From positions 236,654,001 to 236,718,000 of the forward strand of contig CM097883.1 in assembly GCA_044892505.1 (NCBI GenBank): a stretch of 64,000 nucleotides of DNA, in the 5' to 3' direction. A model generated the notes under the pieces. That model did not search any database. It saw nothing but the letters and a program-made list of their open reading frames with translations, and had not been told where the DNA came from. Position 1 is the stretch's first letter. Each line of letters opens with the position of its first letter. Below are positions 1 through 63,530 of the stretch, piece after piece. The translations under genes and the position numbers were made by a program. Source of the stretch: Schmidtea nova (taxonomy: Eukaryota).

Positions 1-687
1 ATTTTCTTAAAAATTACTCAAAATTTCATTTTTCATATATTTAATAATAATTAATTAATTTAAAATTTTATTTTTCAATGATTGTATCACCACCATGAGT
101 ATTTTTATTTTTTAAAGAAATTTTTAAGATCTTTTAAGAATAATATTACTTTAATTGATTATTTCTTCATGAAATATCCATAAAAAATATAATTTCTAAA
201 AAATATATATACGTGGTGTGCTCAATAAATCGTGAGACTAATATAGAAATAATAATAGTAAAAAGATTGATACAGACATATTTAAACTTCAACATATATA
301 GGTAAAGAAAATGTATTTTGTTTTAATAATCAATTATTGTTTAGGTATATTTTTGCGAACATTCAAAAAATGCCTCTGGAAACTATTCAATATCGTAGCG
401 TTATTCCCTTTCTCTTTCTGAAAGGAAAAAATAGAGAAGAGGTTCTTTCTGAACTGAAAGCTGTTTACCAACAAGAGTGCCCATCCACAGCAACAATTTA
501 TCGTTGGTTCAATTACTTTTAGAGTGGTAGAACCTCCGTGGTGGGCGAAGAAAGATCTGGAAGACCCTCAAAAAGTGTTGAAAAAATAACGCAAAAGCTG
601 CAGACAATCGTGAAAAACGAGAGAAAAATAATGACGAGAGAGCTCACAGCCCGTCTAAATGTGAGCAAAGGCACTGTGCATACTCTC

Positions 688-3600
688 TAGTGGCCTGCCG
701 AACTTTGATTTGAACTTCGATTCGGACCAAAGTTCAAACACTTCGGAAACTTCGGACTTCGGCAATAGACCCTGTACGATCCAAATAGTGAAATTTTGCT
801 TGAGCGATAATAAATTATTATTGTTCCGTGATTATTTACATTAAAATTAATGGCGACACGCAAACAATGAAAGTAAATAAAATCTTAGTTGTTGTTCATT
901 TTTCTTTACTATCGATTTTCCTTTCTACGGCTATGTCATACGAACAATGACAAGTCTAGCCTAGCCGTGGCTGTGTCGCTGTGTACACAATAGCCGTTCA
1001 TGTTCATGCATCTCTATTCTCTACACTATAGCAGCCCTATACATCAATCTCCGACTACCCTTAGCATAATCTCGATTGATTCGAGCCACGATAATGGGGG
1101 GGCAGGCGCTTGAATAGGCATGGCTTGCGAGGCTGAGGCTACTGTAATACCACAATCAATTACCGATCGCAATCTAATAGGCCTAATAATAATTTTACTC
1201 TGTCCGAAATTTGTTGCTTGGGCACTATTAGACTTGACTACTGTCAAGAGAGAAATACCACATAATCTACACATTTAAATTAATGTTGAGCACATTTAAA
1301 TTTATTATGTCATCTATCGTCTCTGTATGTCGACTCTCCAATCTTATTGCATGCCTGATGGAAGCAGCACAAGATGCCACGCGCGTGTATGCAGTTCAAC
1401 TGAGTGCATATATCAATGTCATGCACGATGATGTTCGTATACCGTACCTATCGACTTTATCGACAATAATACTTATTATAAAATTATATAGAAATAATTG
1501 TGTCATTTTTCTGTCATAAAATTGTGTGTCATAAATGAATGATTTATTCATTAGGTAAAATATTAGACTGAGCAGAACTGCCAGTTGAGCATCCGATTCA
1601 CTTTCCACATCATCACATGCGAAAATCTCCATAGCTCCATACCCCTCCCCAGTGTACATAATATATATAAAAGCCCATCAAATTTGAAATCGAAAATTTT
1701 AAATATATTTCTTCAACAAAATTAATAAATTAGATTTAAATATTAAAAATAAATGAAATTAAATAATGAGAAGATCAGTAGTCTTTGTGTAAAATATAAA
1801 TGAAAATTTCTAAAATAAAAATAAGTGAAAATAAAAGATATTAAAAAAATATTATCAATTAAATTAATTATTAAATATGTATCATCAATACTAGTAAAGA
1901 GTCCATTTTAATTTGAAATTTGCTTTTATGCTATGAGAAGTAAAATTTGGAATTTCTTTGAAATCAACGCTGTGGATGAATCTTTTGCTAACTGTGGGAC
2001 ATGTAGAATGAAAATGAAACGTGGCGGCAAGGATCCAAGATCATACGGAACAACAACATTAATCAACCACCTACGTTCTAAACATCCGGACAAGTACAAA
2101 GAATATTCACAGGCGTGTGATTCTGCAAAGAAACGACAAGCTGAAGAGGAAGAAAATCAACTCAATGCCGCAGCTAAGAAGCCAAAGCTACAAACTCTGG
2201 ATGCATGTATTGAACGTACACGTCCATTTGAATCGGGTCATCCTCGTCAGATCCTCATAACGAAACTAATTGGTGAGATGATAGCCTTGGATAGTCAGCC
2301 ATTTTCGATTGTCAGTGACGAAGGATTCCGACGTGTTCTGCATCAATTGGAGCCCAGATACGTCATTCCAGACGAGACTTATTTCTCAAGAACAATCATA
2401 CCGGACATGTTTGCTGCAGTGAAGTCGAAAGTCAAGAATCTCATCGGAGATGCCAAACTTCTGTGCTTCACGAGTGATGTGTGGACAACCACCAACAGCC
2501 TAAATGGATTCCTCTCTTTGACAGCACACTGGATCGACAACAATTGGGAACGCAAATTTGTGGTGCTGGCACTTCGAGGAATCAATGGACATCACACCGG
2601 TAAGCTGATTGGAGATACCATATTGGAATTGTTGAATGAATGGGACATTGATGCAGGCAGACGTGGAACCTTCGTTCGCGATAACGGGTCAAGCATGGTG
2701 AAGGCCGCTAGTGTTGCAGGCTTATCAGATCTAGGCTGCTACATACACACGATTCAGTTAGTGGTGGGTGCAGGATTAAAGAAGACGCAAAAGGCTGTCA
2801 TTGACGCAGTTGCAGCTTCCCGCAACATTGTAACCCACTTCCGGCATTCATCATTAGCCAATGATCGACTGGAAGAGATTCAAAAATCTTTTCAGCCGGA
2901 TGCTGCCGGCAACCCATATCCCGTCCACCGCCTGATACAAGATGTACAGACAAGGTGGAACTCCACGTTTTATATGTTGGAACGTTTGATCGAACAGAGA
3001 AAAGCAATAGCTCTCTACAGCCAAGACAACGACGTCACCAATCTGACAAACAATCAGTGGAACTTAATCGAAAGGGTCGTGTCGACATTGCGTCCATTTG
3101 AAGAGGAAACGCGGAATGCTAGTTTGTCAACTGCAACAAGCGGAATGATTATTCCAAGTGTGCGTGTACTTCAGGCAGTTTTGACGAGACCAGCAAAGGA
3201 GGGTGTCGACCCTCAGGGTGACGACCTCGGCATTCAAACAATGCGTGCTGAAATGCTTGCGGATCTCAGCCGCAGGTATGCTAACGTTGAAAATAATAAG
3301 TTGTGCGTGTTATCTACTGCTTTGGATCCAGTGTACAAGCTTCGTCTCTTTAACGCGGAAACTGCTGCCACTGCAAAACAATGGCTTCTGGATGCAATGA
3401 ATGCTGTAACGTTGACGGACAACTCGCGTGATGAAGTGCCAGCAGGCCCAACACCTTCCACATCATCTTCATCAGCCACATCTGCTTTGGATAGCTACTA
3501 CGACGACATGCTTGGAGCTACACAATCCAACTCTACAGATTCCGGTAATCTCCAACAACAGCTCGATGCATATTTAACGGAAGCGTGCAACCAACGACAC

Positions 3601-4344
3601 TCGCCTCCAAAAGATCCAATAGAATATTGGAAATCAAGGCAATACACCTATCCTCAACTTGCACTGGTCGCCAAACAATTCTGTGCTTCTCCTCCTTCCA
3701 GCATGGATAGTGAAAGAACCTTCAGTTTGGCTGGTCTTATATGCGATGACCGTCGATCAAACTTAACACCAGCCAAAACTGAGATGCTTCTATTTTTAAT
3801 GAAAAATCTCGATGCGATCCCTTTTGACTACTAATAAACTAATGAATTCTATTAACTCATCAGACAAGATGTATATATTTATATAAACACTTGTATTTTT
3901 TTATTTTTTCGTTTCACGTTACTTTGCTTGTTGCAAACAGATCTATGTTATATAATTTACATCCATGTTTCAAAAGACAACAAAATGAACACTTCTCAAT
4001 ATCTTGTATTATCACCCATTGTATAATTTTTTCAGTTTTATTGATATGATTCATTTTATTAATTATTAATAAAAATAATATCAAAATTATCAATAATGTT
4101 ACATTTTTTAAATAACTGTTGATAATAAAAGGTAGTTATTACAATTTATTATAATTTTGGTTAGCGTTGATTCCTTTCTTGGTATAATATGCGTCTTGAA
4201 TCGCCGTAGGTCATTGCAGTAGGTACAGGTCCTTAAATTATTTTCGCGCACCAGACATTTGATTCGACTTCGGCTTCGGCCAAATAGTAATTTAAAAATT
4301 TGAACTTCGGACTTCGGCAAAAAAGTCACTTCGGCAGGCCATTA
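688..4344 (+). mobile_element. Full-length hAT (ZBED/Ac-like) transposon
   Basis: 15-bp TIRs TAGTGGCCTGCCGAA / TTCGGCAGGCCATTA (14/15). Perfect 8-bp TSD ATACTCTC at 680-687 and 4345-4352. Confidence 0.95.
1933..3834 (+). CDS. hAT transposase, intact, 633 aa
   Basis: BED finger (IWNFF..CGTC..LINHLRSKH), TSDVWT, RDNGSSM, CYIHTIQL, QTRWNSTFYMLERL, C-terminal dimerisation motif (SSMDSERTFS..DRRSNL). Confidence 0.95.
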   Translation: MRSKIWNFFEINAVDESFANCGTCRMKMKRGGKDPRSYGTTTLINHLRSKHPDKYKEYSQACDSAKKRQAEEEENQLNAAAKKPKLQTLDACIERTRPFESGHPRQILITKLIGEMIALDSQPFSIVSDEGFRRVLHQLEPRYVIPDETYFSRTIIPDMFAAVKSKVKNLIGDAKLLCFTSDVWTTTNSLNGFLSLTAHWIDNNWERKFVVLALRGINGHHTGKLIGDTILELLNEWDIDAGRRGTFVRDNGSSMVKAASVAGLSDLGCYIHTIQLVVGAGLKKTQKAVIDAVAASRNIVTHFRHSSLANDRLEEIQKSFQPDAAGNPYPVHRLIQDVQTRWNSTFYMLERLIEQRKAIALYSQDNDVTNLTNNQWNLIERVVSTLRPFEEETRNASLSTATSGMIIPSVRVLQAVLTRPAKEGVDPQGDDLGIQTMRAEMLADLSRRYANVENNKLCVLSTALDPVYKLRLFNAETAATAKQWLLDAMNAVTLTDNSRDEVPAGPTPSTSSSSATSALDSYYDDMLGATQSNSTDSGNLQQQLDAYLTEACNQRHSPPKDPIEYWKSRQYTYPQLALVAKQFCASPPSSMDSERTFSLAGLICDDRRSNLTPAKTEMLLFLMKNLDAIPFDY

Positions 4345-9300: not shown

Positions 9301-12300
9301 ATTATTCCTCCGCCGCAGCTTCATTTACTGCTGCGCGTTACAAACAAAATGTTTCATAAACTGCAGTCATCATTTCCTAAAGTAGCTGAACTGTGGCTCC
9401 AACAAATTAGTCTCGTACAACCTCAGCTTCATGGCGGCGAGTTTACAGGTAACATGTGTCATCGACTTCTACATCATGCACCTACTCTCCACACCATTGG
9501 TAAGAAATCTGAAATCATTAAGTTTGCAACAGCCTTTGCAGCATTTAACAGTGTTATTAGTGACTGTTTTGGTCAGGTGCTACATGCTGGTTTTGAAGAG
9601 TCTATAAAAAAATTTGAGACAGCTTATATGGATACGGGCATGTCAATAACAACAGCAGTACACATTGCTTGTGTTCACTTGATTCAATTTTATAAACTGA
9701 AGAACTCCACCCTCGGCCGTTTCAATGAACAAGCATTGGAGGCAGTACATACAGATTTTAATGGCATGTGGATATCAGCTGGCAAAGTTAGTGAAAATCA
9801 TGTCCATTTCAATAAGCACCTTTTGGACACTATTATTCGCTACAATTCTCGACACTTGTAACTGCTATGCTACCATTACATTATAATTACCTTCCTGTCC
9901 ATCTCCATCTTTACCCCCTTGTGTTTAACGAACTGTGCATCTGACAAGTCAACAATAAAGTGTACATATTACATGGATGGCTCATGTCATTGTTCTTATG
10001 TTTTCATGTGAAAAAATGTGCGTACGGTTTAAATAGTTTTGCTTCAATCTCATTTTACAGATTTTTGTCAATTGCTCGTAATAGCTCAATCAGGATTTTG
10101 TAGATATACTGTTTCAACATCTGTACCTAAAGTACTATTAAAAAACACAATTCATTTAGGGGTCGGTTTTTTAAAGTTTAGATGGCCCTTCCGGTACAAT
10201 GTGCGTAGCTTTTATTTTTGGCAACCCAATTGCGCTTGACATCGTTGCAATTGAGTGCCGTTTTTATATTTTTAATACTATTTATCTGGTGGTTCTTTGA
10301 TGTAATCCTAAACTGCGGGACTTTATAAATCTTATTGTTATTGTAAGAGTCATAATAATTTGAATGTTGTAGTCCCGCAGTATCTAATCTAATTCCTTTT
10401 GCTTTTAAGCATTCTTCGTCACCTAATAAACTGTAACACTTGGCCGAAGAAAAACCCACTCTTCATATTTAAAGCCCTTATTTTCATCCTTAAACTTACC
10501 TTTCACAGAATCAAGACTACGAGAAAATAAGGGATGGCTCGGGTCATAGTTTGATGTATCTAAGAGTTAATCCCTAATCATAGCATGCAAAAGAACGGAA
10601 AACTTACAGTTGACAATCTCAAGAAAAACGGAGTCTGTGTCACCTGCTACAATATTTATCTTACAATCGAATTCCTTACTATATTTCTCTAATTCTATAT
10701 ATTGTAGCTCATACATTCTAAGTTTAGATAAGTCTAAAACCGTTTGTCCTATATAACTAGGCCTATCTAAACTCACAGACTCCTTTCTCAAAAGCATGGA
10801 AATGAGATTATTATGAATTTTAGATGATTTTCGAAAATAAGGACTACTGCTATATGTTATTAATTTACGGGCTGTATTGCATAATCGTAGGTTTATGCGT
10901 TTCTTTAGCTTTCAACAGTCTTCCCGTAAAGACTGTTGTTTAACAATTTATAAAAATCTTTATCTAGCTTCGTTATGGAAGAAGCTCCCAAAGCAGTATT
11001 CGTGTCCACGTATTTTTTAAATAGCTTACTCTAGTGAAATTTAATAGCCCTATGAATTTTGTCACTAAAACTCCCAATTTCAAGAACATCTGTAAAAGCC
11101 GCCAATGAAGCACATAATTTTTCTTAGGTAAATGTGTCAAAAGCAACTTTTCCACTTTTGAACCATGTGCACACATCTTTTCAGCGGCTACTGGTAAATC
11201 ATCCAGTAAGTCGTGAATTGATGCCGGTATTTCTAAATCAACTTCTATGGTATAACCATAGTTAAGCTGAAATAAATCTACCGTTGTGCATTCCGACAAG
11301 ATATTTTCAAGTAATTGGTCATGCGTGACCCAAACAAAGTTCCCGTCCGGTAAGTTTTATGAAAGAGCCCAGCCATATAGATTATTAATATCTATGTACA
11401 GCAGCTCTGTACCTGAGCTCGTTTGCACATGATGTTTATTAACGAAAGTGAGGCCGCCTCTGATTCCACCTTCAAAAAAGTTGTACATCTCCATATCGGT
11501 CAAAAGCTCGATAGAAGATTCTAACGTCATTAAAGCAGAACACCAACTCATACCAGGTATGCCTAAAAAATTCAAAGGCTCAAGTTTGTTATGAGCTATA
11601 CTTTTTGTACGAAATTGTTGAAAATAATCAGCCAACAGAAATATGTCAAGTTTCATGTAAACCATCATATAATCAAATAATGAGTTACAAGAATTTTCTC
11701 TCCATATTTCTTTTGCCTTTTCATAATCAACAATATCGACACCTTCCCAAATTGGTGGCAATTCAAGAGTCGACCTCAATACATCTAAAGAAGTGGCAAC
11801 GTCGTAGGGAAAAATCCCCTTACTATTTATCATGTTTCCAGTAAATTCAGAAGAAGTCAGAGGAAAAGATGAAAACGTTTTCACTAAAGAATCTAAAGAC
11901 TGACTAGCGAATTGATAAAAGTCAATGAACTTAACTGTGAGTGATCCGATTCTCGCAAAAAAACTGAGAAACTTTTCACTGGTGACAGTAACACAGCTAA
12001 TGTTCCAAGACTCATATTTTGAAAGGCCGAATTTGATGATATGATGTAAATCATAACCTCTTAAATTGTGAAATACTATAGGCAAAGTGTGTCAATTTGC
12101 CGAGAGATGTTACATTTTTTGCACGCTGCTCCAAGATAAGCACCTGTAAAGTAATCATGATCTTTAACAGGATTTTCTAATACTTTTTCACACAAGTAGC
12201 AGTGTGTTGCATTTGAAAAATTTTGAAAGTCATGATAAGTTAAAATAATAATTTTGTTGGAATTTTTATAATAATAGGGTGTTACAATTTTGCGACTGAT

Positions 12301-27300: not shown

Positions 27301-30300
27301 TAAACAACTATCCAATGTTCAACACATAAAGTAGATGATTGAGTATTGACGACTATGGATTGATTGACATCTAAATAAAGGATTTTGTCTAGTGGATATA
27401 CTCCAATAAATTCATTTCCCAATAAATGTTTTCCAATTCGATTAAACTGAATAGAACTAAATAAATAAATTTATTTGATAAATAATAAAACTAACTCCAT
27501 GACAAATTGTTAATTTTGACTTGTACATTTATAATGATAGTTTAAATCAAAACTGTTCGATTAGTAGTAATTTGAATTTCATTTTCAAATACTCCATTTA
27601 TTATTACATGTATTGGTTCCTCAATGGCTTTAGCGAACTTTATATCCAATCTCAAATTTCCATTTTGAGGTAATTGACTTTGATTTAAATCGAAATCCGG
27701 AGCCAAAACAAATGTAAAGAATGGGTATTTGTTTTTAAAATCGGCAATTGTTTTACCACAATTCAAATTCTTATCTAAATATCCCATATTTCTGACCATC
27801 GACTGCATATATGTAGTACAATAATTATCATTTTCGAAATCTTGAGTATATGTTTCTCGATAATCAGTGTTTTTCGATAGAGATAAGGAAGTTACATTGA
27901 AATGTTGGAATTTCGAACTTGATGCATTATATGATCCATTGTATTAAGTTTCACTTTGAAATGCGTTCAGAATAAAATTAAGCATTCTTCGAACGCCGAA
28001 TATTTGTTCTTTGTAGAAAGATGATGCACCTTTACCAATAGCAAATTGCACGATTTCTTTGGTTTTCATTGTATATTTTGTATGTTTTTAATTAAGTTCA
28101 ACTTGATGTCCAGCTAATACAGATGGTTCAACACGAACACGACGAATCATTAATTTTTCATCAACTAATTGACATTTTCGTGCTCCACTTTTAGAATATA
28201 ATGATAATGCAGAATCAGATCGCTTCAGTCTGATGTGAACATTGACACCTGGCAATAAATATTTCAGTTGATTCATGAAATCCAGTTGTAGAGATGAACA
28301 GATTGTGTATAATTTTAAGCCTTTGATCCAGGCTTTTCTCTCATCAGAATCTCCATATCCCATTAGAGTAAGACAAGTTTCTTTGGTATCACCATTATAA
28401 TTTAAAATAGTTTCGATTATTGCCTTGTTTGCATAAGTATTGTTTCCACCTTCAATCTTTATATTATTAAATCCAAGAATTGCATCATTGAATAGAATAT
28501 GAAAAATAAAATTGTTTGCTATAACATTATCAGTTGCTGATAAATCTTTTTTATCAGAATTTACAACTTTTATTTGAACTGTTAGTAAAGTACCATTCAG
28601 ATCCAAATATTCAGATTGAGATCCTTTAATGTAAATAACCACATCATTTTTACCGTCTGTAATAGAATTCATGGGAAATACTTCTTCAAATGCTCCATAT
28701 TAAATGACTGCTTGAGCAGATGGTCGGTCAAAACGACATAATTCAGATTTACCACAAATCATTTTGCAAATATAGTTCCATCTCCTTTCATTCGATTGTT
28801 TATATACCTTCGATGCTTTTTACGTCTAGGCCCCACTTGTTTCGGTTTGGGTTTAGGTTCATCTTCATTAAACATACTTGTTACACCGGGAATCATACTA
28901 GTCACAGTAGGCAGTACTTTGCCAATTTCAGACAAAGCATTTGTTTTCAATGATGGCAATATCTTCTGATCATTCATGATCACATCTTTGGCAGTTTTCA
29001 AACCAAAACTACCTATTTGCTAAAGAATTTGGAGTGCGAATCGCCCTATAGTTTTTAACCAATCTGGTTCATACTGTTTACTGCAAAATAAGGTAATTCC
29101 CCACCAGTTTGGCTATTACTATACAATGGGATTATATCGGAATTAATCATTTAATTTACGAAAATGTAATGTCAAATGTGTTTTTGAATCGTTTGGAAAA
29201 TTTATTAATTTACCACTATCGTCACGTATATTTATTTCTATATTGTCTATACATGAGTTATAAATGGGTAAATACATTGGATTATTCATTACTATTTGTT
29301 CAACTTCATCCTGTTCATATTTTTCGATCCATACAGATTTCAGTAGAGAAACCAGAGAATCGCCGACAATTATTGGTTCAATAATGTTACTGTAAATGAA
29401 CATTTGTTGATGATGAACAAGTATTTTAGGTTTCACAATCCCATCAATAAGGTTTCTATCTCTAAGTGTTTGTTTATTTAATCCTAAAGTATTCACCAAG
29501 TTTTATCGAATGTAACTTCACTAATATTATCATTGAGACTGAATTGAAACCATTTATTAGTCTCTAGAGGTTTAAAGATATGGGAGCAGTTGAATAATAA
29601 ATATTTAGATAAATCTTCCAGTTGCATTATATACAAATCATTTGCAAATGTAAATGTCTCATCAATTTTTGCATCATAAAATATTGTCATCTTAATATAT
29701 TCTTTCAAATAACTATTTGGTTCAAATAACACGAACTTTAATTGATGTTATTTCAGTGTATTTACAATTTTTAGTTGATTACTTCCTATTCGTTTTATTT
29801 CTTCAATATTTTTAAATGTAATTGTATATGGAAATAAATCACAATTAATATTTAAACAATCATTATTGAAATACATACTACAATGAGTATTCAAATTTTG
29901 GTTAGGAATAGTATAAATTCTTTAAAAATTGTTGATGATGAATAGACCATTCTTTTGTAATCAATCTTACATTGACTATAAAATGGAAATGTGTTGTATA
30001 CAAACATGAAATCTTGCAATGCAACTTCCCAATTACCATCTAAATAAATTGCATTTTGAAGATTGACCATGAATTTACTGGCTTGATTATCTGGGTACGT
30101 TAGTGAAGAGCTATTACTTGGTAATATAGTATAAAAATTCACTTTACTAGGTCTTTTGATGATATATATGACGGGTTTTGATAACCATACCACTTTACGT
30201 AGTATTGTTTATCCTTACCCACCATTTTAGTTTTCAATATATTTTGAATTCTAAATACAGTAAGAGAAGGATTAAATTGCAAATTTTGCTCGAACAATTT

Positions 30301-33300
30301 CCCACTAGCTACATTGTTGTCAGAGTCAGAAATAAAATACATGACAGGGTCTTGGCTAGTATTAATATTTGAGATCTTAAATACCTCATCACTCCAATTA
30401 CTTTATGAATGGCGAAGCGCTAATCGTACTTATTCAAACATGATTACCTATTTCATATTTCTGTTTATTTATAATAGTTTTTACTTAACGAGATCCAGTA
30501 TTTTTCGTTGAAACATCAACAGCTCTGAATCTACTAATACCTTTCTGTTACGAATGATTATAATTATGTATTATTTTTGGCAGTACAATAATCCACCTTG
30601 ATGCACAAAATAACTTTTTATTCGATCTTTTAATGTACCATTAAATTGTTCAACGTGGACTGCTTTGAATTGAGAGAACATTGAATAAATGATTAATCCC
30701 GCCGAAAACTTCTTTAACTTTACTATTGTAAAATTCTTTACCTAAATTATAATAAAATGTATAAAATATGTATATATTCTTACCCAAATCAGTTTGTAAA
30801 TTCTTTGGACTACCGGACTTAAACTTAGTTTTGATTGCAACAGCCACTTCATTTGCTTATTTAGTTTTAGTAGGAATAGTCCTAGCATATCTATTGAAAA
30901 CATCGATACATGGTAAAATATATTTATATCCCTTGTTAATATTTGAATAGGGTATCATTTCCATCAAATCCATTTGCCACTAGTCATTAATGCCATATGT
31001 TTTATATGCTCTTGTTGGAAATCGTTTCAAATTTCGAGTTTGATGTGACCCACCCTGATGAAATAAATTCTGAGTAATAAAAATAACTGTAACCCCTTTA
31101 TGCCTAGCGATTTTTGTGAATACATTATTGAAATCCTTCTCTTAATTAGCTTTTTGATAAAAATCATCAATAATAATTACATCAGCACTTCGTTATGTAG
31201 ACCAGTGGTGGCCAACCAAAATCAATCGAATGGCCAAGTTTTCGGAAAAATAATTATCGCAGCCCACAATAAATTTATTCATTATTTTCAGTAAATAGTA
31301 CATAGTATATGTACAATTTTAATGCAATTGCTGCTTCTCAATTTCCTCCGAGAGTTTGGACAAGTTGATCTCACACTTTGTTAAAGAAATTCTCAACTGA
31401 TCACTAAGATGTTTGTCGGCCAATTGTGTGCGATCTTTGCTCTTGATGCGTTTCATTTTTGAGAATAATGCTTCGCAACGATATGTAGTAGGGAAAACAC
31501 TAATTATCTTCAAGGCAAGAGTATTGAGATTCGGGAAACTTTCATTTGTAACAAACCTTTTGTAAAACTCAATTTTAGGCATTTCGTTGAACCAATGTTT
31601 CAAGTCTTCACGAGCTTGAAGATCAATCAATTCCATTTGATACTCAAATGGGGCTTCGTCAGCCTTAACATGGAATGGTGTTAAAAATAAAGCTAATTCT
31701 GTATTAAATTTATCAAATACAGCGAATCTACGTGGTGCGGTCAAAATGTTTCCGGCCTACCCTACTTAACAAATTGATATTTTAATGGAAATAGGTTTAT
31801 TTTATTGGAAATTTATTGACAATTTCATGTTGAAAATCTTATTGACCTAATCCATTTACTTTATCTGTTGCAGATAGAAATGTCCTTGCAAGTGCATTCG
31901 CTGGAAGAAATTGAGTATCGCAGTGCTATTCGCTTTTGTGTTCTTCTCGGTCAAACCAACCAGGAAACCACGGCAAATCTGAATCGAGCCTATGGCGAAA
32001 AGTGTCCCTCTCAGTCTACCATCAAGTTTTGGATTGCTGAATTCAAACGGGGTCGGCAAAGTGTGTCAGATGAGGAACGAGAAGGTCGACCAACGACTTT
32101 GAGAAATGAAGATGTGAAGGAAAAATTGGAGAAAATGGTACTGGAAGATCGCCGTATAACTACCAGGCAGCTGGAAGAATCCCTACAAATATCACACGGC
32201 ACCGTAGTGCAATTATTGAAAGACCTTAACTTCAACAAGGTGGTGTCTCGCTTTGTGCCTTGCTTTTTGACAACTGAGATGTGCAATAACCGAAAGATTG
32301 CGTGTCTCATGAACCTCGCCATTTACCGCAAGTATGGAGAAAGATTTATCCAAAACATCCTCACTGTTGATGAGATACCGTTGCCCCTACATCAGCCTGA
32401 ATCAAAGCGGAGTCTATGGAATGGAGAAAGCCAGAAGAAGGAAAAGTTTGGAAGTCTCGTTCCGGAATGTCGCACAGACGGGAACTCATGTTTACTGTGT
32501 TTTGGAGTCATAAGGGAGTGATCCTCACCGACTTTCTTGAGAAGGCACGGACAATCAGCGGAGAATATTACGGTAATCTCGTTGAGCAAGCTCGTGGAAA
32601 GTGCCGAAAACCAAATGGTCTCCCTCACTGGTTTCAACATGACAATGCGCCAGTTCACACCAGCCGCATTGCTCAAGCAAAACTCAATGACTGTGGCTTC
32701 GAGATCATTAGCCACTCTCCATACAGCCCTGATTTGGCTCCCTCAAATTACTGCCTATTTACGGAATTGAAGAAGCAACTGCGGGGATAGTATTTCATGG
32801 ATGCAGGCGATTTAGAGGAGGCTGTAAATCGGATTTTTGACCAGATCCCACCCTCATTTTACCATGGGGCATTCGAAGCCCTCCCTGGTCGTTAGCAGAA
32901 GTGTGTCGATGCCGGAGGTAATTGGTTCGAGAAGTAATGGTATTGGTATTGATAAAAATATAGTTGTGGTTTCTTGCTTTTACTTTTTTCTGGAGTAGGC
33001 TAGAAACTTTTTGACCGCACCACGTACGTTGGAAATCAAATTTCAGTTCCCGAAGAATATCTGCATAACGACGAAAAGTTTTTGACCATTAACAACCTCA
33101 AAGTCATTTATTAATGGAAAATACAATGCCACATTATTGTCCAACTGCTTGATCCACAAATCTAGCTTTGCAACGAATGATTGAATTTTTTGAAAGTAAT
33201 CTGTTATGAGCTTTCCTTCTCCTTGCAATTCGACATTAAAGCTGTTGAGTTTTTCAGTGATTTCTACTACGAAACATAGATATAGCAGCTACTGTTCATC

Positions 33301-35769
33301 GTAAAGCTCTTTTACATCATCAGCATTTTCAAGCATGAATAATCTAATTTCTTCATGGATTTCGTAAAATCGTCTGAGTGTCTTTCCTCGACTCAACCAA
33401 CGAATTTTCGAAAAATAAATCAAATCTCCATATTCAGCCCGAATTTCATTCAAATATTCTTGAAATTGTCTATGTTTCAGTGCGCTATGTTTAATTTTGT
33501 TAACAGTTCCAACAACGACAGTCATCGCAGTTCCCATAACAACAATCGGGGCGCACAAATTTATAAATGAAGGAAGCAATGAATCGTGAATAGCTTAGAG
33601 ACATCAATATCGTTCTTTTTCAAATGTTAAAGTAGTAAGACTACAGCACCAATGTTTGTTCCGACCATAGCCAGGGCACCGACAATTTGCTATATGGGCA
33701 TTTACGGTTGGCAAGCGAGCAAACAACAACTTCTATGATATCAACTCCTTTGATCGCGTCTTTTAAGGAATGAAGATCCAACAATTCTTCGTAAATGTTG
33801 AAATATTTGTCAATGCCTCTGATAAAGATTCCTAGTTGTGCTGTGTCACTCAAGTCAGTGCTTTCATCGAAAGATATAGAATAAAACGAAAAGTTTTGAA
33901 TCAAATTATTGAGAGTATTGCTTAATTTATCGGAAATCAAATCTACTCGTCGTGTCACCATTGGTCTGGATAAGCTCAACTGTTTAATCAGCTTGATTTT
34001 ATCAGGAAATAATTCTTCGGCGACAGAAATCATACACTCCTTGATAAATTCACCATCAGAAAATGGCCTCATATTTCTTCCAATAATATGTGAGACCTTA
34101 AAGCTAGCTCTGACAATGCTATTTGCCTCATTAACTGGTTTCTTGAAGATCATTTGCTGCGCTCGTAATTTTTTTTTCAGATTAACTAACTTTGCTTTGC
34201 GTTCCTCACCAATAATTTTAGCAAATGAATCGTGTCGTGAAATATAGTGCTGGTTTAAATTGTAGTCTTTCAAGACACTCACAGTTTTGCGAAAATCAAA
34301 CATAAAGCTGAGATTTTTTTTCGATGAAAAAAATATTTTTCTTCCCATTTCTCTTGAAATTTTCGGTTTGGAGACTCATATTTTCTTTTATTGGAACCTT
34401 CTTCAGATGTCATCTAAAATAATATTAATAATAATTTAATATAATATTTAAAACTAGCAACTGTTACTTACTTTTAAAAGTCCTCAAAAGTTTTGGTGTT
34501 TAAAAATGACTTTTACAAAGCGAGGCAGTATGAATAAACTTTAAACTAAAAACTGAACTCGCAAAGCAACAAATATGGCTTTTTTGATTTTTTGAAAAAA
34601 CTTCACCAGTAATCAGCTATAAATTTATTTAAATTATGAATATGATATTGTCATTTGTTTTTAAAGTAAGTAAAATTGCATATAATTTCATTGATTGAAA
34701 ATTTGCGCGATTAATGTATAGGAGAGATGAAACAACAAAAGCTAGTTTCATATTGTTGTTTCATCTCACCTATTGTAGTGTGTAATTGCAAATTACACAA
34801 AGAAATCACTAATTAATGTATTTGAAAAATTACTTTATTTTAACGGATTTTGTAACACAGTCAATCCCGGTTAATATCGCGTCCTTCGTTCATGAAAAAA
34901 AGTCGATATTGATAATGACGTGATATTATCTGATGTAAAATATTTCTTTTGGTTATTGAAATAAATATAACTCGTTTTTACAATTCAAGTAAACTTAGAA
35001 TCAATTTTTAAAATTAAAAATATGCTTAATTTGATTATAAATTCTAAAAAAGCCAATTATTGAGCTGATGTTTAGAATTACTTTGCGGGCCACATCAAAA
35101 CGTTTAGCGAGACACATTTGGCCCACGGGCCACTGGTTGGCCATGGCTGATCTAGACGACCAATTTTTATCGAATCCCTTTATTATTGTCATTTTAATCT
35201 TACGGAATTGATCTTGAGTCATTCGCTGTTCATTATCAGCTCCCCTGTGCCAATAAATTTTGTTAAATTTAGATTTGAGTAATTTTGATTGTAATAATTT
35301 ACAAACAAATAATGTTTTTAGACTTCCACTTGAACCGACAATTTGAAACACTGCATAATGTCTTAACTCCATTTTCAAAATATTAATAGTTTAGTTATTT
35401 TTTGATATTTGTTTTAATTTATTGTTTAACTTTTAAGAAAATTATTTAAAAAATAATCAATCCTATAATGTTAAGCAACATAAATTACAAAGGAAAATGT
35501 TCTGTTTCTATTATGAAATTACCTAGAGGTAAGTCACAGCAGATTGTAGATAGGAGAGGTAAGTATATCATAATATTTTTCAAGTTGGGGTAAATGTAGA
35601 ATAATGGAATGTAAACAACCTCTTAAAGATGAAGATTTATTATATGAAAAATATGATTTGCAAATACAATCGATTACAGTTACTACAAATATTGGAAAAT
35701 GTGTCAATTTACATGAATTGTCACAAAATCTCTCATGTTCTTATGAACCAGAAATATTTCCGGCATTGA

Positions 35770-35838
<69 letters not shown>

Positions 35839-36633
35839 GAGTTATGAATGTTTAGTATCTTGTTGTTGTTATTATTCATTTTTATTATTATCCGTATTTT
35901 TATATCATCATTATAATTATTACGGCAACGGCATTGTACCCCCCTTTTTCGCTAATTTTTTATTATGATTATTATTATTATTATTTTAGTTAAAATTCAA
36001 GTTTTGAATTTTAAAAGCTTACTATAGTAATAAACTATAGTAAGCTGAAAATTAAAATTTTAAAAATTGATGTTAAATTATTGAGACAAAAGTTGTAAAA
36101 TATAATTTCTACTAAAAGATTATCAAAAGAATCTATCAAAACAGAAACTAAAAGAAAACTTTAAAAGAAAATTAAGAATAAATCAGAGACAGTTGAAAAT
36201 TAAATTACTATCATCCGAAACAAAACTAAAAGAACAGAAGCTAAAAGAAAACATTTATAAAACAAGAATCAATCAAAGAGAAAGTTGAGAATTAAATTAC
36301 CATCTTCCCAAATAAATCTAAAGGAACAGGAGCTAAAAGTTATCAAGAATTTTAAAGTAACTTTTCGTGGTTTTTCTGTTTATTTTTCTTTAATAAATTT
36401 GGTAAAGTAATCAATTGTTTATATTATTTGGTTTTTATTTATATTTTATATATTCCATTATTGTAAAATTTTCCACCATAAGCACTTACACAGCAAACAC
36501 CCCGAGTGTCTACACACCGACATTGTAAGACTCTCTCGGGCACTTCAGTATTTCTTTATACCCGCACTCACTACATAAACATCAAAATATATACAACATA
36601 TATAATATAAAATATACAAACATCATAAGTACG

Positions 36634-36717
<84 letters not shown>

Positions 36718-38860
36718 ATAATTTTTTATGTGTCAACTTATTCAACAGTGGCAAAGCTGTTATACTCGGTATAAAAACGTTAAACTATCAACTTTTGGTT
36801 GAAGTAATAATTAAAGATAACAAATCTGTGATTGATGACTTAGAATTCTTGAAATTTGTGCTACTCGTTACGTAATAAAATACATGATTGTGGTTGATTG
36901 TTAGGAAATAAATACTTCATTTTGATTGGATGAAGGTGTGTACGATTTAACAGTATATATATAACAACATCATTTTCATCACATTTATAACAACAGCAAA
37001 AAAGATGTCTCTTAATAAAACCAATGGTAAGGATTGATTTTTATTTTGAAATTTTTATTAAAGCTTTCTTTTGATTTAGGAAAACTAATGAGCGTTCTGA
37101 TTGGAAAAATGGAGGATCTGTACCCGAAACTTATGCGTGAATTGGTTTACTGCGCTGCGGAGCTCTTGTCATATAAAATATTGGCATTAACTGGAATCGA
37201 TCTCAACAAGGTGTTGATCAACCATCAGCATAATCTGGAAGAAGAAGAATGCAGCGCCAGTATTATCTGTGTCTATAGATGCGAAAGTTGCGTATATAGG
37301 ACTCAGAAATATCACAAATAATTGCTATGAGAGGAGTTAAAAACATTTTAGGACAATAAATATTTTATAGTTAAAATATCTTTTTATTTTGTTTTTTATA
37401 AAGTGTTTTTTCTTAAAACGTACCGAGTTATAAAAAATGTTTTGTAGTTAAAATGTATTTTTATTTTGTTAAATTATTTTTTATAAAATGTTGATACTTT
37501 TGAATATATAATGGAAATATAATGNNNNNNNNNNNNNNNNNNNNNNNNNNNNNNNNNNNNNNNNNNNNNNNNNNNNNNNNNNNNNNNNNNNNNNNNNNNN
37601 NNNNNNNNNNNNNNNNNNNNNNNNNNNNNNNNNNNNNNNNNNNNNNNNNNNNNNNNNNNNNNNNNNNNNNNNNNNNNNNNNNNNNNNNNATTACAATAGA
37701 AAAAGAAATTTATAAATAACTTACAATAGATAGACAAAGAAATTGCAGTAGATATATAATATTATTCAGCAACTTGCATACAAACTCAATTATTAATACA
37801 TAACACATATGCAATAGATTTGCAAGACATGTGCAATCGATTTGCAAGAGATGTTCATGAATCTGATTGGCTGCACACAGACGATGACGAGTATAAATAA
37901 GAAAACAAAAATAGTCTTGTTCGTAAAATGCAAAATCTTTTCACCAAATCGAGTCCAATTAAAATGAAACCTGTTAATAACGATACCAAATCAACTCAAA
38001 ACAAATTTGATTTACGACCGGTTCAGATGTTTCACGATTACCAAATGTTTTTATGGTAAACAAAATCCCATTCAAGGTCCCAAATATGGTAAAGCTGTCG
38101 ACTTCACAATATTTCAACTTAATTGGTCAGATTTATAAAGATGGTAATCAATAAAGTGTTGATGAAAATCAATAAGAAATTATCTTGCAATGAAAGAATA
38201 TTTATCAACAATAGGAACACCGAAATTCATCATGAATTTCAATAAGTTGAATTTATGGATAATGAAAATTGGTGTATTGATATATCCATCCAAGGATATA
38301 AAATCGATACAAAAGAATCAATATCTCCAATTTAGAAAATAAAAGCGGTAGAATTACATAGATGGAATCGCATAAATAAAATTGATGTCGTATATATGTG
38401 TATTTATTAATAAATGTTGATAAATTCTCACTTGTTGTTTTTTTAAAATTGTTTTGTAAAATTTTGTTTTTTGAAAAAAAATAAAGTTTTTATGTTTTTG
38501 AAAGATTTTTTGAATTTTTAAAATATTACTTTAAAAAATTGACCTTAGGGTGACTTTGACCTTAACGTGTCCTCAAAATGTCCTTAAAATTTGACCAAAA
38601 AGTGACCTTAAATTTTTTTTATGACTCATCGTGTCTGTGCAAAAAAGTACGCGGGAGTCACTTGATTTTGATTGATGTACACATGTGACGACGTCATATG
38701 TATTTGTTCCCCCGTCGACACTTCCTCCTATTAAATTTAAATCATTTTAAATTATTAAATAATAAATCATTTTTATTAAATTTATATTTTATTTATAATG
38801 ATCAATAGATAATCAAACACCAATAGAAAGTCACTTATATGTATACAACACCTAATTAAT

Positions 38861-49200: not shown

Positions 49201-52200
49201 TTGGCTTTTAATTATCTGATTTTATTTTATTTTATTTGAATCATAGTATTGTACGTTGCTTCAGTGTTGTGACTATAGGGCCAATGTAGTCAGAGTAGGT
49301 AAGTAGAAGTATCGCTTAAATTTAAAATAATAGTAAGGAACCACTGACTCGCGTAAAAAATTATTTTTCAGAAGGTCTCAGGTGACCCCTGGCAAACTTT
49401 CACGTGACCCACAGGTTTGGAACCGCTGAACTAATTCTTCTTCAAAAATTTATTAATTTATTGACTTTTCAAGTTTCCCATACATCATGGATTTTCTTTT
49501 CGCTCCGGATTTTCATACAATTAATTTGTTTAATGTAATTGAATCATTTTTTGACAAGTCAGGTTTCTCACACAGCTTGGACTTTCCATTAACTAATTAA
49601 GATTTTAATAAACTTGTTTTTTTTATTATCTACTTATATAGACCCTCTATTGATTTTAGATTAATATATTTGCATTCGTCTCATCATTTTACATCTACCC
49701 ATACCTGTTTCCCCGCAAAATTATGATTTTTAATTTTTTAATTTTTAATAAATTTTGCCTTATATTTGGATTTTGCTATTTTTATTGAATTTTACTCAAA
49801 TTTCTGAGCATTTCATTTTCTCTGTCTGTTTAGACCAATGTTTCTTAAACTTTTGACCCGTGCGTTCCCCTTGCAAACATTTTCCAACTCTGTGTACCCC
49901 TTACTGAAAATTGTAAGATTTAATATTAAAAAAAAACTAATCAGGTATTACTATTTTTAATATAGGTTAGGGTTCGAAAATATATACAAGTTATTATAAT
50001 GTTAATATGTGATGTAAAGTAAAGGCATTTTTATGTACGTACAAATCAATTTTTAACATCTTACCTTATTGACGAAAAAAAAATTTTTTTCACAAAAAAA
50101 TAGATATAACACAGACACAATGCGCTCTGTACTCCACAAAAATCAAAATTATACTGATTTCAAGTCTAGATAACTGGCGTATCGTAACGGTCGTGGCGAC
50201 CGTTAAATAAATCACGGAATCTATAAAACGTCACTTTATGTATTTTCACGGAATCTTTAAAACGCCGCAGCAAATTTTAGTCAGTCTATAAAAATAATGT
50301 TTATATATGACAAAAAAACTAGCTACTGGCATCAAGCTAGGGCGATACATTATGAATATTCTTTGAATTATTTTATTTTTACTTTCTTTGGACTTGTACA
50401 TTTCTGCATAGATTATTATGTTGAATAAGTTCGTCAAGAGTCACACTGGGCAAAGTGACGTGTATGGAGAGTCATTGAGACAATGGCGAAAGATGAGTAG
50501 AGATGTTATTTCGTTCGACTTAAAGAATGCTTATTTACAGTTACATGTCGATGAAGAATGTTGGAAGTATCAAAAGGTATGCTATGACGATAAGTTTTAC
50601 TATTTGACTAGCCTACATTCAACCCAAATCCCAGTCTAGTCAAATAGTAAAACTTATCGTCATAGCATACCTTTTGATACTTCCAACATTCTTCATCGAC
50701 ATGTAACTGTAAATAAGCATTCTTTAAGTCGAACGAAATAACATCTCTACTCATCTTTCGCCATTGTCTCAATGACTCTCCACACACGTCACTTTGCCCA
50801 GTGTGACTCTTGACGAACTTATTCAATTCTCGGAAATTCATAACAGGTCGAACTTTATTCTTATTCGGCTGATCCACTGCTATTAATAGAATCGTACCAC
50901 GGACGCTTGATTCGACCGGTACAAGCCATCCTTCTTCTATCCAACGCCTAATCTCTGCATCAAACGGTGCTTGAATATCGTTTACCATCTTATAACAAGC
51001 AATCTTGTTCCACAATATCGCTGGTCCAGACTTTCATTTCCATTTGACGACCCATTTCTTGTCGAATCTAGCTTCGAAATCTTCGTCTATAATATTGATG
51101 ACGATCAGAGAAGAACTTGCTCCAGTGACACGCTTATCACTCAGCACACATACCTTCTCTTTCGAAAAAACGACTCCATCTGTACTAATCAGGACACTCC
51201 CTAATCTTCCAATAATATCCATGCCCAGGATCATCTCAATATCGTAGGTTAATTTTTCGAGAGCCAGACAATTTACTCTTAAATCTATACCTCTAATCAC
51301 CAAGTTTACCAATATATCACAATAACACGACACAGAGGTTCCATTTGCTATCATCACCTCGTCCGTTCTTCTCAACTTTTTGCTTACCAACGAAGCCAAA
51401 ACAACAGATCTTGAGCATCCGGAATCAATCAAAGCATTTGCCTCTTTCCCATCCACTTTAATTGTGATTATTTGCAACGCCATTACTGGCTCAATGGAGT
51501 AGACACCGGCGTAAGTGTTACCCCATTGTCGTTTTTTGAATTCTTGTTTGGACATACTCTAGATATATGATCGGTGCCGTTACAAGACCAACACCTTGTT
51601 CCAAACTTCTTAAAACAACGTTCAGCTAAGTGGCCAATCTTATCACAATAAGAACAACGTTTTACTTTGTTATATACAACGTTGACACATTCAATGTCTT
51701 GAACTTTCGTATTCATCATTGCCCGTGTTATCTGAACAATATCCCCCATTGGCATAGTATCAATCTTTGGAGTAGCCTGCAACAATCTCGACACGTCTTT
51801 TGGTAGTCCTACGACAAAAGCGTTGCTAACGGAGTTCTCATTCTTTTCTGTAAGTTTTGCACGAAATCTTAGATCGGCCAAAAATATATCCACTGATCCT
51901 CCAGTCCGTCTACAATTTCTCATTTTTCCGTATGATAAAAACATACTTGGAGAAAATGCTTTTTCCAATGCATTCTCGATTGCTTCAAAACTAGCCTTTT
52001 CCTTTTCTGATGAATGTTCGTACACGGCATATGCATCGCCTTTCAAAAGAATAAGCATAAAAACTTCTATAGTTTCTATCTTCAACATCTTTACAATTGA
52101 TTTGAGTTGAGCAAACCAGCTTGCAACATTGCCGGTTCCATCGAATTTTTCCAGATATTTCAAAACTTCCATCGATGGCCGCGATAGCTTGTGGTAAAAA

Positions 52201-55200
52201 TAATTAACGAGTTTTTGTATAATTATTATATAACATCAATTGCTTCTAAATATTAAATCTATTTCAAATACAATCAATATTAAAACAATTGAAATTAAAA
52301 AAAACAACAATTAAATTAAGCACAGACATCATTGACAATCTCATTTAAGTTATAGTTACCTTTTAATAATAAAACCCATGGAAGCTTTGCTAGCAATAAA
52401 GTAACATACATAGAAAAGTAGAAGTCACACTTGCCATGATTTATATTAAAAATAAAAAATTGAAACTTGTTCTTATCAAATAGAATACAATGTGATGATT
52501 TAATTATTTTTACGCATTTTAAGTAGTGTAATATGAATAAATATATTCCGGTTTGTCTAAATCAGTTAGAACGATTTTATAAATTAAAGAGCTGCGTTCA
52601 AAAAGCCTTAATAGATGGGAGAAAAGAGATTAATTTCTCATCCAATGAATTCAAAATAATTTCAAATATAATATCTGCTCTAACTCCAATAAAAATAACA
52701 GTTGAGAGTTTATGCTGTGCGAACACCGATTTATATAAGGCTGATATAGCTTTAGAATTTATGTTTGAGGAACTTTCAAAGCAAAATTTCTCACTCAGTA
52801 ATGATCTTAAAAATGCATTATCGAGACGCAGCTATGAGTGGCGGTTTGTATATGCGGACCTTTTTAGCTTTCTTCATATACCTAATGTCCGGAATTTAAA
52901 TTGCGAGGATTATGGAATTTTTGACCAACTCTCAAAAAATTCTTTAATATCCCAAATTGTTAACCTGTTAGAACGTTTATGTGTTAGCGAAGAAATATTG
53001 GACACAATTTCAGATTCAGATACGGAATTAATTGCTGATGACGAAATGGAAATGGAACAGCAACCAGTAGAACCTAGTTCTCTGCAAGAAAGGCTTCACA
53101 AAAGAATTCTGGAACGATACACACAACAAACATCTCAACTACCACAAAAAAAACCCAAGAAGGATTTAATAAAATTAATTCGCGCGGAAGTAAAGTATTT
53201 TGAAAGTGAAGGCATCAAAGGGAAACATATAAGCATCGTACATAATTATTTAAATACCGTTAGGCCCACAAGCGTCGATGCTGAAAAGGCTTTTTCCGCT
53301 GCAGGATTGCTAGTTACGAAAATCAGATCAATGCTTTCCGACAAAAGCGTCGATAATTTATGTTTTTTGAGATCGTATTTTCAAAATATAAAATAATTTA
53401 TTTTTCTATTAACTAATGAATTTTAATTTCTTTCTTTTAATTTTTTAAATTAAAAAACAAATGAATTAATATAATATTTTACTCAATTTTATTTTATTAA
53501 TATATTTTTAATATATATTTCTATTAACTAAAAAAATTTAATTTAATCTCTTTCTTTAATTTTTTAAATAAAAACAAATGAATTAATATAATACTTTACT
53601 GAATTTTATTTTATTAAGATTAATTTACGTTCCCTGTTTAGGGAATATTGTCTAGCTCAATTACCGAAAATTACCGGTATTATCGGTTTCGGTAACTTCC
53701 AATTACCGAATAACCGGTTATGAAGGAAGTGCTTCGGTAATGGACACCATAAATGTAGCCCCATAGATTATGTCTAGTATTTAGAAAAGGTGTTGAGTTT
53801 ACAAAGTGACATTGTTGAAGTGACAGATAGTTATATAGACGACATAATAGTTAACTAGTCATTAGTTTGCGTCTCGGATGTTATAAATCATTTGCAGAAA
53901 TATGGATTAGAAGTGAATTATTCAGAGAAGTTCGATGATGCAAGAGTTTTAGGATTGCAAATAACAATGCGTAACATGGATCGGATTTGGACAAGAGGTA
54001 ATGAGCTTCCTGTTTTGAGGATTGGGCAGGAAGTGTCGAAACGTCAATTATTTTCAATTTGTGGTCAATTGCTTGGTCACTATCCAGTGGCAAATTGGTT
54101 GCTAGTTGCTTGTGGTTTCATAAAACGTCACAGTAGTGGAGAGAAATGGGATGATAAAATTGGGCTTATTGCGCAAAAGATGTTAACTGACACTATTGCT
54201 CGTGTTTCCAAAGACGACCCGGTGCGTGGCAAATGGCATGTGTCAGAACAACTTAACGGTGTACTATGGTGTGACGCAAGTAGCTTGGCTTTGGGTGTTT
54301 GTTTGGAAATTGGAAGTCATGTAGTTGAAGATGCGTCCTGGTTGAGGAAGAAGATTGATGTGTGTCATATTAATTTAGCCGAGCTAGATGCCGTTATTAA
54401 AGGGATAAATGTAAGTCTAGCTTGGGGCCTGAAAGATATCTTAATAAAAACAGATTCAGCCACTGTGAAAAGTTAGGTTACCTCTATATTGCCCAATCAA
54501 GAAAGAGTACGTACACACTGAATATCAGAAATGTTAATTCAGCGAAGATTACAGATAATCAAGGAGTTGCAAGATAGTTTTAATTTAGCTCTTTCGATAG
54601 AGTTACTATCTACAGAGAGGAACAAAACGGATATACTAACGAGAGTACCTAAGACGTGGTTGTACTGGGTAAAGGCTGTAACATCTGTAGTAATTACAAA
54701 AATGGATGACTTAGTAAGGTATCACAATGCTCATAATTTAGACGTTAAAAGAGCGTTGGATCTTGCTAAGAGAAAATTCCCAAATATTACTAAGAAAGAC
54801 GTGCAAGATATCATTAGCAAAGGTGTAGAATGCAGATCTATTGATCCAGCACCGGTTACATGGAAGCACAGGAAGCTTGATGTTGAGGTAAATTGGAAGA
54901 GGATCGCGATCGACGTGACTCACTATAAGGATAAAAGGTATTTAACAATTATCGATTGTGGACCGAGTCGGTTTGCAATTTGGAGGAAGATAGATAGTGA
55001 GGAAGTTGGAGTCATAATTCGAAATTTAGAGCAGATATTTAGGGAAAGAGGTTCACCAGTAGAAATACTCGTAGATAACGCTACATCCTTTCAATCTGGA
55101 GTGATGGATTTGCTGTGCAAGAAGGGGGGGGGGTTATGCGCATGTTCAGATGTGTATATCGACCTGCTGGAAATGGGATAATCAAGCGGAACCATAGAAC

Positions 55201-61165: not shown

Positions 61166-61721
61166 TCAGGCAAATTGTTCATCAGCAGCATCTTCACGCA
61201 CACCCATAACCACATCAATTCCCTTATAATGTCCATAAGCCAGACTAACATTTTTTCCCACCCAAAGTCTTTTGTCGTCAAGATTAGTCAAGGCAATCTT
61301 AGAAGATTTATTAGTAAAGAGTTGATGATTCTTACTAACTATTCTCGACTGATCAACAGAAACTATTGAATTATTATTATAACAATCCAGATACGACTGA
61401 TGATTCAGTTTAGTATCCTTCAATGTTATACCCTTAGCCTTAATGCACTCTTCATCACCTAAAAGACTGTAACACTTTGGCCTAAGGAATACCCACTCAT
61501 CATACTTGAATCCTTTATTCTCGTCTTTGAATTTACCAATGACGGAATCTAGGTTCCTACTGTATAATGGGTGATTCGGATCATAATTAGAAGTGTCAAG
61601 TAAGTTATCTCTTATCATGGCCGGTAAAAGAATATCAAGCTTACAATTTCTAATCTCAAGAAAAAATGAATCGGTGTCACCAGCAACGATGTTAATTTCG
61701 CAGTTGAATTCGTTACGATAT
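61166..61721 (-). pseudogene. pPolB C-terminal segment of Polinton D (open but 5'-truncated)
   Basis: [36 protein letters not shown]. Confidence 0.9.
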
Positions 61722-61781
61722 AAAAAACAATAAAAAACACAATTTTTAAAATTAATCTTTATTTAAATAAATCTTCGGCAA

Positions 61782-62163
61782 TTAATTTGTATTGTAAAGG
61801 TCATCATAGTATGCCTTTCTCATTTCAGCAACCAAGATATGCACAGATTGTTGTCTTTTGAAATCGTGGCAACAAGCACATCCATTGGTGCATGAAACAC
61901 GCATTGATTCCTTACAAACAATACAATTTTCAACGCACTTGACTCCAGCTCCTAGCACCATATCATAGTGCATTTCAAGCAACTCCTCGATATTGATCCC
62001 TGTATATTGGTATATTTTATGTACCAACAACTCGGGGGCGCAATAATCGAGATTATTTTTAATCTTTGGATATAAATCTTGGATCTTCTTGAGAAGTACT
62101 TCGAGCAAATAAACTAAAAGAATAAATAAAAATAAAAATAAAAATACTCTTACTTTTTGACAT
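61782..62163 (-). CDS. Cys-rich Polinton protein (spliced; intron 62114-62153)
   Basis: ATG TCA AAA A/GTAAGA..TTTTAG/TT TAT TTG gives MSKIYLLEVLL..; C-terminal CxxxCxxC..CxxxCxCCH. Confidence 0.8.
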
Positions 62164-62213
62164 TTTCAAATTTTAACAATCAATGAGTAACAATTAATTC
62201 AAACAAAATTTAT

Positions 62214-62648
62214 TTAATTAATTAATGTATTTATTTCATTAATTATATTTTCCACATAATTTTTAAAATCTAAAGTTTTAATTCCAAGCATAACTACTTT
62301 TCCGCTGCCAAAGACATTGACACATACTGGATCAAATTTCTGTAGACGTAATGCTGGGAATATTTCTGGTTCGAACCAACAACGACATTTCTTTTGTAAT
62401 TCATATAAATTAATAAATTTGCCGACATCGACCGTTACAGTAATTGATTGAATCTCTAAATTTTTAATCTTGAATTTCAAATCCCCCGGCTTTAACGGTT
62501 GTTTGCATCCCATTACCCGACACTTGCCAGATTTGAAGAAGATGATGGCGTACTTGCCGCTTCTGTCAATAACTTGTTTCGGTTTGCCACTCGGGAATAT
62601 CATGCCGGGAACTAAACATTTACCTTTATAATTGATGTTGCTCAACAT
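62214..62648 (-). CDS. TBP: Viral TATA-box-binding-protein-like protein, 144 aa, intact
   Basis: Two TBP repeats: IIFFKSGKCRVMG and [37 protein letters not shown] (cf. TBP IQNMV..YEPELFPGL..LLIFVSGKVVLTG). Confidence 0.92.
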   Translation of the reverse strand: MLSNINYKGKCLVPGMIFPSGKPKQVIDRSGKYAIIFFKSGKCRVMGCKQPLKPGDLKFKIKNLEIQSITVTVDVGKFINLYELQKKCRCWFEPEIFPALRLQKFDPVCVNVFGSGKVVMLGIKTLDFKNYVENIINEINTLIN

Positions 62649-62703
62649 TTTTGATTAATTAAACAAATATAAACAATATTAATTAATTAATTAATTAATT
62701 AAA

Positions 62704-63327: not shown

Positions 63328-63350
63328 AATCGTAAAATTAATTAATTAAA

Positions 63351-63500: not shown

Positions 63501-63530
63501 ACAAAACAAATTGTGAAAAATCTGCTAATA

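Follow-up and report, generated by a model that had tools for sequence, protein, structure and literature searches.

A probable short spliceosomal intron at one fixed integrase site across a large Polinton clade in Schmidtea nova

Polinton core genes are generally described as intronless. In the available account of vertebrate Mavericks, intact elements have no introns (PMC8097293), and in that of Caenorhabditis Mavericks the core genes are intronless and introns occur only in host-derived cargo (10.1101/2022.07.12.499685). A first-pass annotation of the DNA studied here had given the same description, which these two sources do state for vertebrate and nematode elements. Cryptophyte PLVs are reported to carry group I self-splicing introns, a different intron class (PMC12220804). 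The literature covered, which leaves aside the founding Polinton papers, Repbase and most subscription journals, contained no conserved spliceosomal intron in a Polinton core gene; for the terms looked up, PMC6431247, 10.1101/2023.08.22.554363, PMC8502044, PMC12721341 and 10.64898/2026.07.28.741278 yielded nothing that bears on such introns. Here, we describe a 42-nt insert in the integrase gene of a Polinton found in a window of 64,000 nt of S. nova DNA (the window being the whole stretch that was analysed), and we follow this insert through the genome and among related elements.

The window copy of the integrase gene lies in a decayed Polinton (22698-38732) that has inverted ends and an AAATTT target duplication at both ends; its features are collected in Table 1. 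All three fetched copies of such elements are about 14.7-16.2 kb long, with terminal inverted repeats (TIRs) of about 1.3-1.8 kb, ends AGT…ACT and 6-bp duplications. The polymerase matches DNA_pol_B_2 (E 9e-27 and 1e-29), the packaging ATPase matches Pox_A32 (E 1e-6) and the adenain-like protease matches Peptidase_C5 (E 9e-6). The rve match on integrase exon 1 (E 1e-7) is just under the Pfam cut-off, the sister family described below gives E 3e-10, and exon 2 has a weak Chromo match; the D, D and E of a retroviral-like DDE integrase align with those of foamy virus integrase. The candidate capsid has no Pfam match, and its first Atlas match (0.98) is to a cluster with 15% DJR-like_dom members, with recognition below the threshold of the tool. 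The described Polinton trait of intronless core genes is absent here, since both the integrase and the protease genes are interrupted.

Table 1. Features of the Polinton in the window (positions are those of the window; strand as read)
Feature	Position	Strand	Remarks
Predicted integrase intron, GTAAG…TTTAG, phase 1	30742..30783	-	Length 42 nt in this copy and 44 nt in the closest others; families range over 40-48 nt
Integrase exon 1 remnant, with both catalytic Asp; 5' 47 codons absent, TAA at 30857-30859	30784..31030	-	
Integrase exon 2, with catalytic Glu and C-terminal chromodomain; frame changes in the window copy	30139..30741	-	
Second predicted intron (39 nt, phase 2), preceded by the five bases that begin with the protease ATG (27498-27500)	27457..27495	-	Donor GTTAGT, decayed copy
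Protease, adenain-like cysteine, exon 2	27120..27455	-	Peptidase_C5 on a young copy
Candidate major capsid protein, remnant	27545..28819	-	One reading frame in 2/3 fetched young copies
ORF after the integrase, remnant; likely minor capsid protein by position only	29146..30208	-	No Pfam match
Packaging ATPase, middle piece	31028..31207	-	First piece at 35151-35390, on the far side of nested hAT and Tc1/mariner insertions
Fragmented TBP-like gene of the element	35465..36872	+	
Further part of the Polinton	24855..27089	-	
Terminal inverted repeat, begins AGTAGG	22698..23831	.	Target-site duplication AAATTT 22692-22697
Other terminal inverted repeat	37714..38732	.	Target-site duplication AAATTT 38733-38738

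Several further features of these elements and of the window were observed. The TBP-like protein of the Polintons matches Pfam TBP (E 3e-14 and 3e-16) and is found in the window at 62202-62654 (-) as well as at the place given in Table 1, and at L032:1958-2443 (-); similar TBP-like ORFs can be seen by eye in the metagenome relatives L151, L152 and L155, and a TBP-like gene is mentioned for a related virus (PMC8502044). The sister family is often an inverted duplication of the block from ATPase to capsid around a single protease gene (L107/L108), with arms that are 99.9% identical and pairs of uninterrupted integrase motifs about 7.2 kb apart. The ORF after the integrase is doubled in tandem in one family and in one metagenome relative (L114:4770-5789, L115:4699-5718 and L152:6605-7684). 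Metagenome contig L152 also carries an ORF at 225-722 (-) that by eye resembles a ubiquitin-conjugating enzyme. The window holds two more Polinton remnants of other families, one at 10200-16620 with polymerase and protease pieces and one at 61220-64000 with the TBP-like gene and an ATPase that runs off the window end. Other transposon sequences lie at 31210-35150, 1912-3834, 19151-19489 and 50600-55200; they include pieces of hAT and Tc1/mariner elements that are nested within the Polinton, a hAT transposase whose frame is open, an rve fragment and an LTR-type retroelement that has both a protease and an integrase.

The minus strand at the insert reads CAA ACT GAT TTG G / GTAAGA…ATAATTTAG / GT AAA GAA TTT TAC, where the slashes mark the borders of the 42 nt, and the insert splits the Gly codon of TDLGKEFY. 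The first-pass annotation had placed it directly after the second catalytic Asp; the insert was confirmed on the sequence, but the split Gly sits two codons past that Asp (D-L-G), which was assigned from the sister-family integrase aligned to foamy virus integrase, where the later Glu aligns too. Read through, the window insert adds 14 residues without a stop, as had been proposed, and this holds for the dead window copy and a small minority of others; elsewhere retention mostly gives a frameshift or a stop. The in-frame length of 42 nt is atypical within its own family. Searching the genome at the DNA level yielded 2,711 candidates; 40 of these were scored, giving 30 loci. The insert is present in all of these best 30, and it is 44 nt long in each of the 29 loci outside the window. 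Because the closest copies carry 44 nt, the 14 additional residues are a trait of the dead window copy, and a frameshift is the family norm. The window integrase itself is a decayed pseudogene, having lost its first codons and carrying an in-frame stop upstream of the insert and frame changes downstream (Table 1). By itself, the window copy cannot separate an intron from a random insertion.

In young copies, the N-terminal part can be read as far as …LQTDLG, and the C-terminal part opens at GKEFYN in a different frame. Of 55 distinct copies among the best-hit loci, 47 (50 of 60 rows) have both flanking frames open, but in different frames; this count is biased to young copies by the use of best hits, and one locus did not fit the pattern. 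A pattern anchored on the exon motifs and allowing an insert of 30-60 nt matched 10,526 sites in the genome, compared with 0 for the reversed control, so that chance does not account for it. When GT…AG ends were required, 10,238 sites (97%) remained, again with 0 in the reversed control, and all of the first 100 listed of the 10,526 sites have these ends. A similar pattern gave 9,893 matches, and lengths and frames were read from the first 100 listed, all within the first 12 Mb of one contig. The lengths among these 100 were 40 nt (24 copies), 41 (8), 42 (16), 43 (28), 44 (18), 45 (5) and 48 (1). In 78 of them the insert is not a multiple of three, and 18 of the other 22 have an in-frame stop as read by eye, so that an unspliced read would shift frame or stop in 96 and pass through in frame without a stop in 4. 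Twenty of the 100 were fetched, and they comprise several families with differing interiors. The insert is thus not specific to one copy: it is family-wide, at the same position in several diverged families. As a separate observation, if each of the about 10,500 integrase sites stood for an element of about 15.5 kb, they would amount to up to roughly 13% of the 1.25-Gb genome, which is an upper bound because many copies are cut down.

Both exons are under strong purifying selection. For nine pairs of intron-bearing copies, dN/dS lay at 0.03-0.15 for exon 1 and at 0.06-0.16 for exon 2, and dS reached about 3. In seven distant pairs, the identity of the intron interiors was no better than that of shuffled sequence, since 24 to 288 of 300 shuffles reached it. 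The ends have U2-type features (a GTRAG-like donor and a YAG acceptor), and ends and position are conserved while the interior changes. Constrained exons, kept ends and position, and a free interior form the signature of a functional intron. Taken together, these comparisons suggest that the segment is very probably an ordinary spliceosomal intron, a short GT-AG intron at one fixed integrase site across a large Polinton clade. The first-pass proposal of a spliceosomal intron that makes the family dependent on host splicing therefore has strong comparative support: the insert is family-wide and mostly frame-breaking, GT…AG is kept and the exons are constrained, with splicing itself predicted from these patterns.

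The same data bear on two other explanations. If the insert were inactivating, the elements that bear it would be non-autonomous and moved in trans by the uninterrupted integrase of the sister family, which is present in the same genome, and the window copy is indeed dead. We consider this very unlikely, as both exons, the downstream one included, are under strong purifying selection with synonymous sites near saturation, and GT…AG ends kept in 97% of copies around a randomised interior are unlike a dead gene. Alternatively, ribosomes could bridge the gap during translation, through programmed frameshifting or ribosomal hopping from one Gly codon to a second, for which the window's family offers the same GGT codon at both ends of the insert. 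However, all three frame classes occur among the insert lengths, the codon landed on varies by family (GGT, GGA, GGC or GGG), the interior is unconserved AT-rich sequence, and the insert in the protease gene differs in phase and lacks matched codons but shares the GT…AG ends, which makes such crossing extremely unlikely.

Related integrases were aligned, and the site is common to several intron-bearing families, while the sister family and all testable homologues are uninterrupted. Among 120 listed homologues, 113 match both exon products, and in every one of these 113 exactly one residue, the split Gly, lies between them; the remaining seven comprise three with an uninterrupted motif, three that start downstream of the site and cannot be scored, and one chimera. 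Because most of these proteins derive from intron-blind gene calling, interrupted relatives would be under-counted in this set. In the S. nova genome, the uninterrupted motif matches 309 times, and these matches include the sister family (80% and 76% identity), which has no insert and the same G/GT context. A related-locus search of metagenome_contigs gave six loci, of which the five that span the integrase site are all uninterrupted; the same search gave no relative in viral_contigs. The exon-anchored insert pattern, a narrow exact-match search, had 0 matches in metagenome_contigs and 0 in viral_contigs.

Two separate trees, one of 72 exon-2 rows and one of 30 exon-1 rows, which were quick searches without a bootstrap or one-clade test, each place the intron-bearing rows on one side of a branch with an SH-aLRT of 92, and in both the sister family adjoins these rows or is unresolved nearby. 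Since the intron-bearing families form one branch, the alignments and trees indicate that the integrase intron was likely gained once. A search for exact intron-less copies of the window's family gave one genomic match, an old decayed copy with 60-69% protein identity, so that intron loss is not seen. Gain by tandem duplication of the G/GT site and its flanks would fit the ends of the intron in the window's family, where its first bases look like those that open exon 2 and its last bases like those that close exon 1. We regard this origin as quite improbable, given that none of 16 integrase introns scored above the highest of 17 unrelated protease introns taken as controls and that the splice consensus and AT-richness explain the resemblance. 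An introner would place the same intron sequence at many unrelated sites; the interiors of the integrase introns differ between families.

The first-pass annotation had missed a further predicted intron, which lies in the protease gene. No family has a start codon in its protease frame, and in all 20 protease starts found, ATG and two bases are followed by a GT…AG insert of 35-40 nt with a predicted border GA/T. This predicted intron also occurs in the sister family with the uninterrupted integrase. Both metagenome Polinton loci that reach the protease carry it as well (39 and 40 nt), and the integrases of these two elements are uninterrupted and 60-62% identical to that of the sister family. 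Since metagenome Polintons with an uninterrupted integrase carry it, the protease intron appears to be older and is not confined to the S. nova genome. A third candidate intron (49-54 nt, phase 1) lies in a small reverse-strand gene; under a strict test, 11 of 24 rows passed, some of these being overlapping loci; further candidates lie in a small gene ahead of the polymerase. The ATPase and the capsid ORF are each in one frame in two of three fetched copies and need no splicing where they are whole, and the polymerase has an open frame of 1350 codons in one fetched copy, with a possible acceptor at its 5' end.

A chaperonin tree of 17 rows groups the host with flatworms, outside those parasitic neodermatans that were sampled (SH-aLRT 95). 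Seven host chaperonin loci contain ten inferred introns, which measure 37, 46, 47, 48, 51, 51, 51, 51, 55 and 110 nt; nine of the ten thus fall within 37-55 nt, and they are AT-rich and GT-AG, in a small sample with approximate borders. The element introns (35-48 nt; integrase 40-48 nt) lie at or below the low end of this ten-intron host sample, whose borders are approximate. About 70 of the 92 chaperonin matches in the genome are near-identical pieces that cover profile positions ~347-488 only and often stand in tandem about 5 kb apart, which suggests that a chaperonin fragment is carried in a repeat family.

In the mechanism that we propose, host RNA polymerase II would transcribe the Polinton in the nucleus, and the major spliceosome would remove the integrase intron, a removal needed for a whole integrase. 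The spliced mRNA would encode an integrase with D and D from exon 1 and E and the chromodomain from exon 2, and the unspliced RNA would give a truncated product without the catalytic Glu in nearly all copies. Most likely, the intron is spliced out constitutively and persists because it can be removed, not as a regulator. The clade likely keeps gaining host-sized introns, because an older intron after the protease start codon was already present. In four contig runs of unrecorded kind from one study, compared with a young copy, genes and spacers were covered alike, and no joint at the intron occurred among the 15 listed of 375, a result that speaks neither for nor against splicing.

The first-pass annotation had suggested that splicing could restrict integrase activity by tissue. 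A regulated switch could be added to the intron reading. The intron would then behave like the third intron of the Drosophila P element: it would stay in the RNA of some cell types, or do so under piRNA control, to give a truncated or repressor product, and would be spliced out only in germ line or in stem cells. In 96 of the first 100 listed copies, retention would break off the enzyme after its second Asp and before its Glu, the P element IVS3 offers a precedent (PMC7776569), and Schmidtea mediterranea Polintons are described as piRNA targets that are de-silenced on differentiation (PMC8532177). On the other hand, the splice sites are close to consensus, no element is conserved in the interior, and similar introns in the protease gene and in a small accessory gene point to general intron gain. 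The frame and stop status of the retained form also vary freely between families, so there is no conserved truncated product, and for this reason we hold regulated retention to be doubtful. Similarly tentative, and in our view unlikely, is a broader proposal that this clade is a host-spliced nuclear resident which gains core-gene introns, that PIWI or cell type operates a P-element-like switch on it, and that intron gain allowed a burst of more than 10,000 copies, among the largest Polinton loads in animals.

Ordinary constitutive introns in Polinton core genes would have consequences for how such elements are found and understood. Polinton core genes are treated as intronless, and "intact" copies have been defined by uninterrupted ORFs (PMC8097293). 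Because "intact" requires uninterrupted ORFs, an intron-blind screen would class the whole clade, with its approximately 10,000 integrase sites, as frameshifted fossils. Conserved introns in the integrase and in the capsid-maturation protease would imply nuclear, host-spliced expression, which bears on whether Polintons live as transposons or as viruses. Within one genome, the clade and its uninterrupted sister family also provide a succession of intron gains that can be dated.

Among described systems, mirusviruses likewise have spliceosomal introns in hallmark genes of a DNA virus lineage, which are read as a mark of nuclear reproduction (PMC12768974), although they belong to an unrelated realm with protist hosts, many of their introns encode homing endonucleases, and Polintons are unmentioned in that account. 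Like Ginger1 (PMC2836005) and the P element with its third intron (PMC7776569), the elements described here have an integrase or transposase gene split by a GT-AG intron, and since Ginger1 and the P element have introns, elements mobilised as DNA can keep them. Unlike the Polinton, however, these two are simple cut-and-paste transposons without a polymerase or capsid, and regulated retention is reported for the P element (PMC7776569), whereas for the Polinton it would hold by analogy only. Dinoflagellate maverick-polinton-like elements also contain sequences of the spliceosomal intron type, but these are described as recognisable mobile introners, mostly acquired after integration (PMC11957031); the intron found here, in contrast, occupies one fixed site, predates the families, has an unconserved interior and was copied with the element. 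With vertebrate and Caenorhabditis Polintons, as far as these are described in the sources cited at the outset, the present elements share long TIRs, a 6-bp target duplication, pPolB, an rve integrase with a chromodomain, an A32-like ATPase, an adenain-like protease and a putative double jelly-roll-like capsid. Unlike them, they have two core genes with what appear to be conserved introns.
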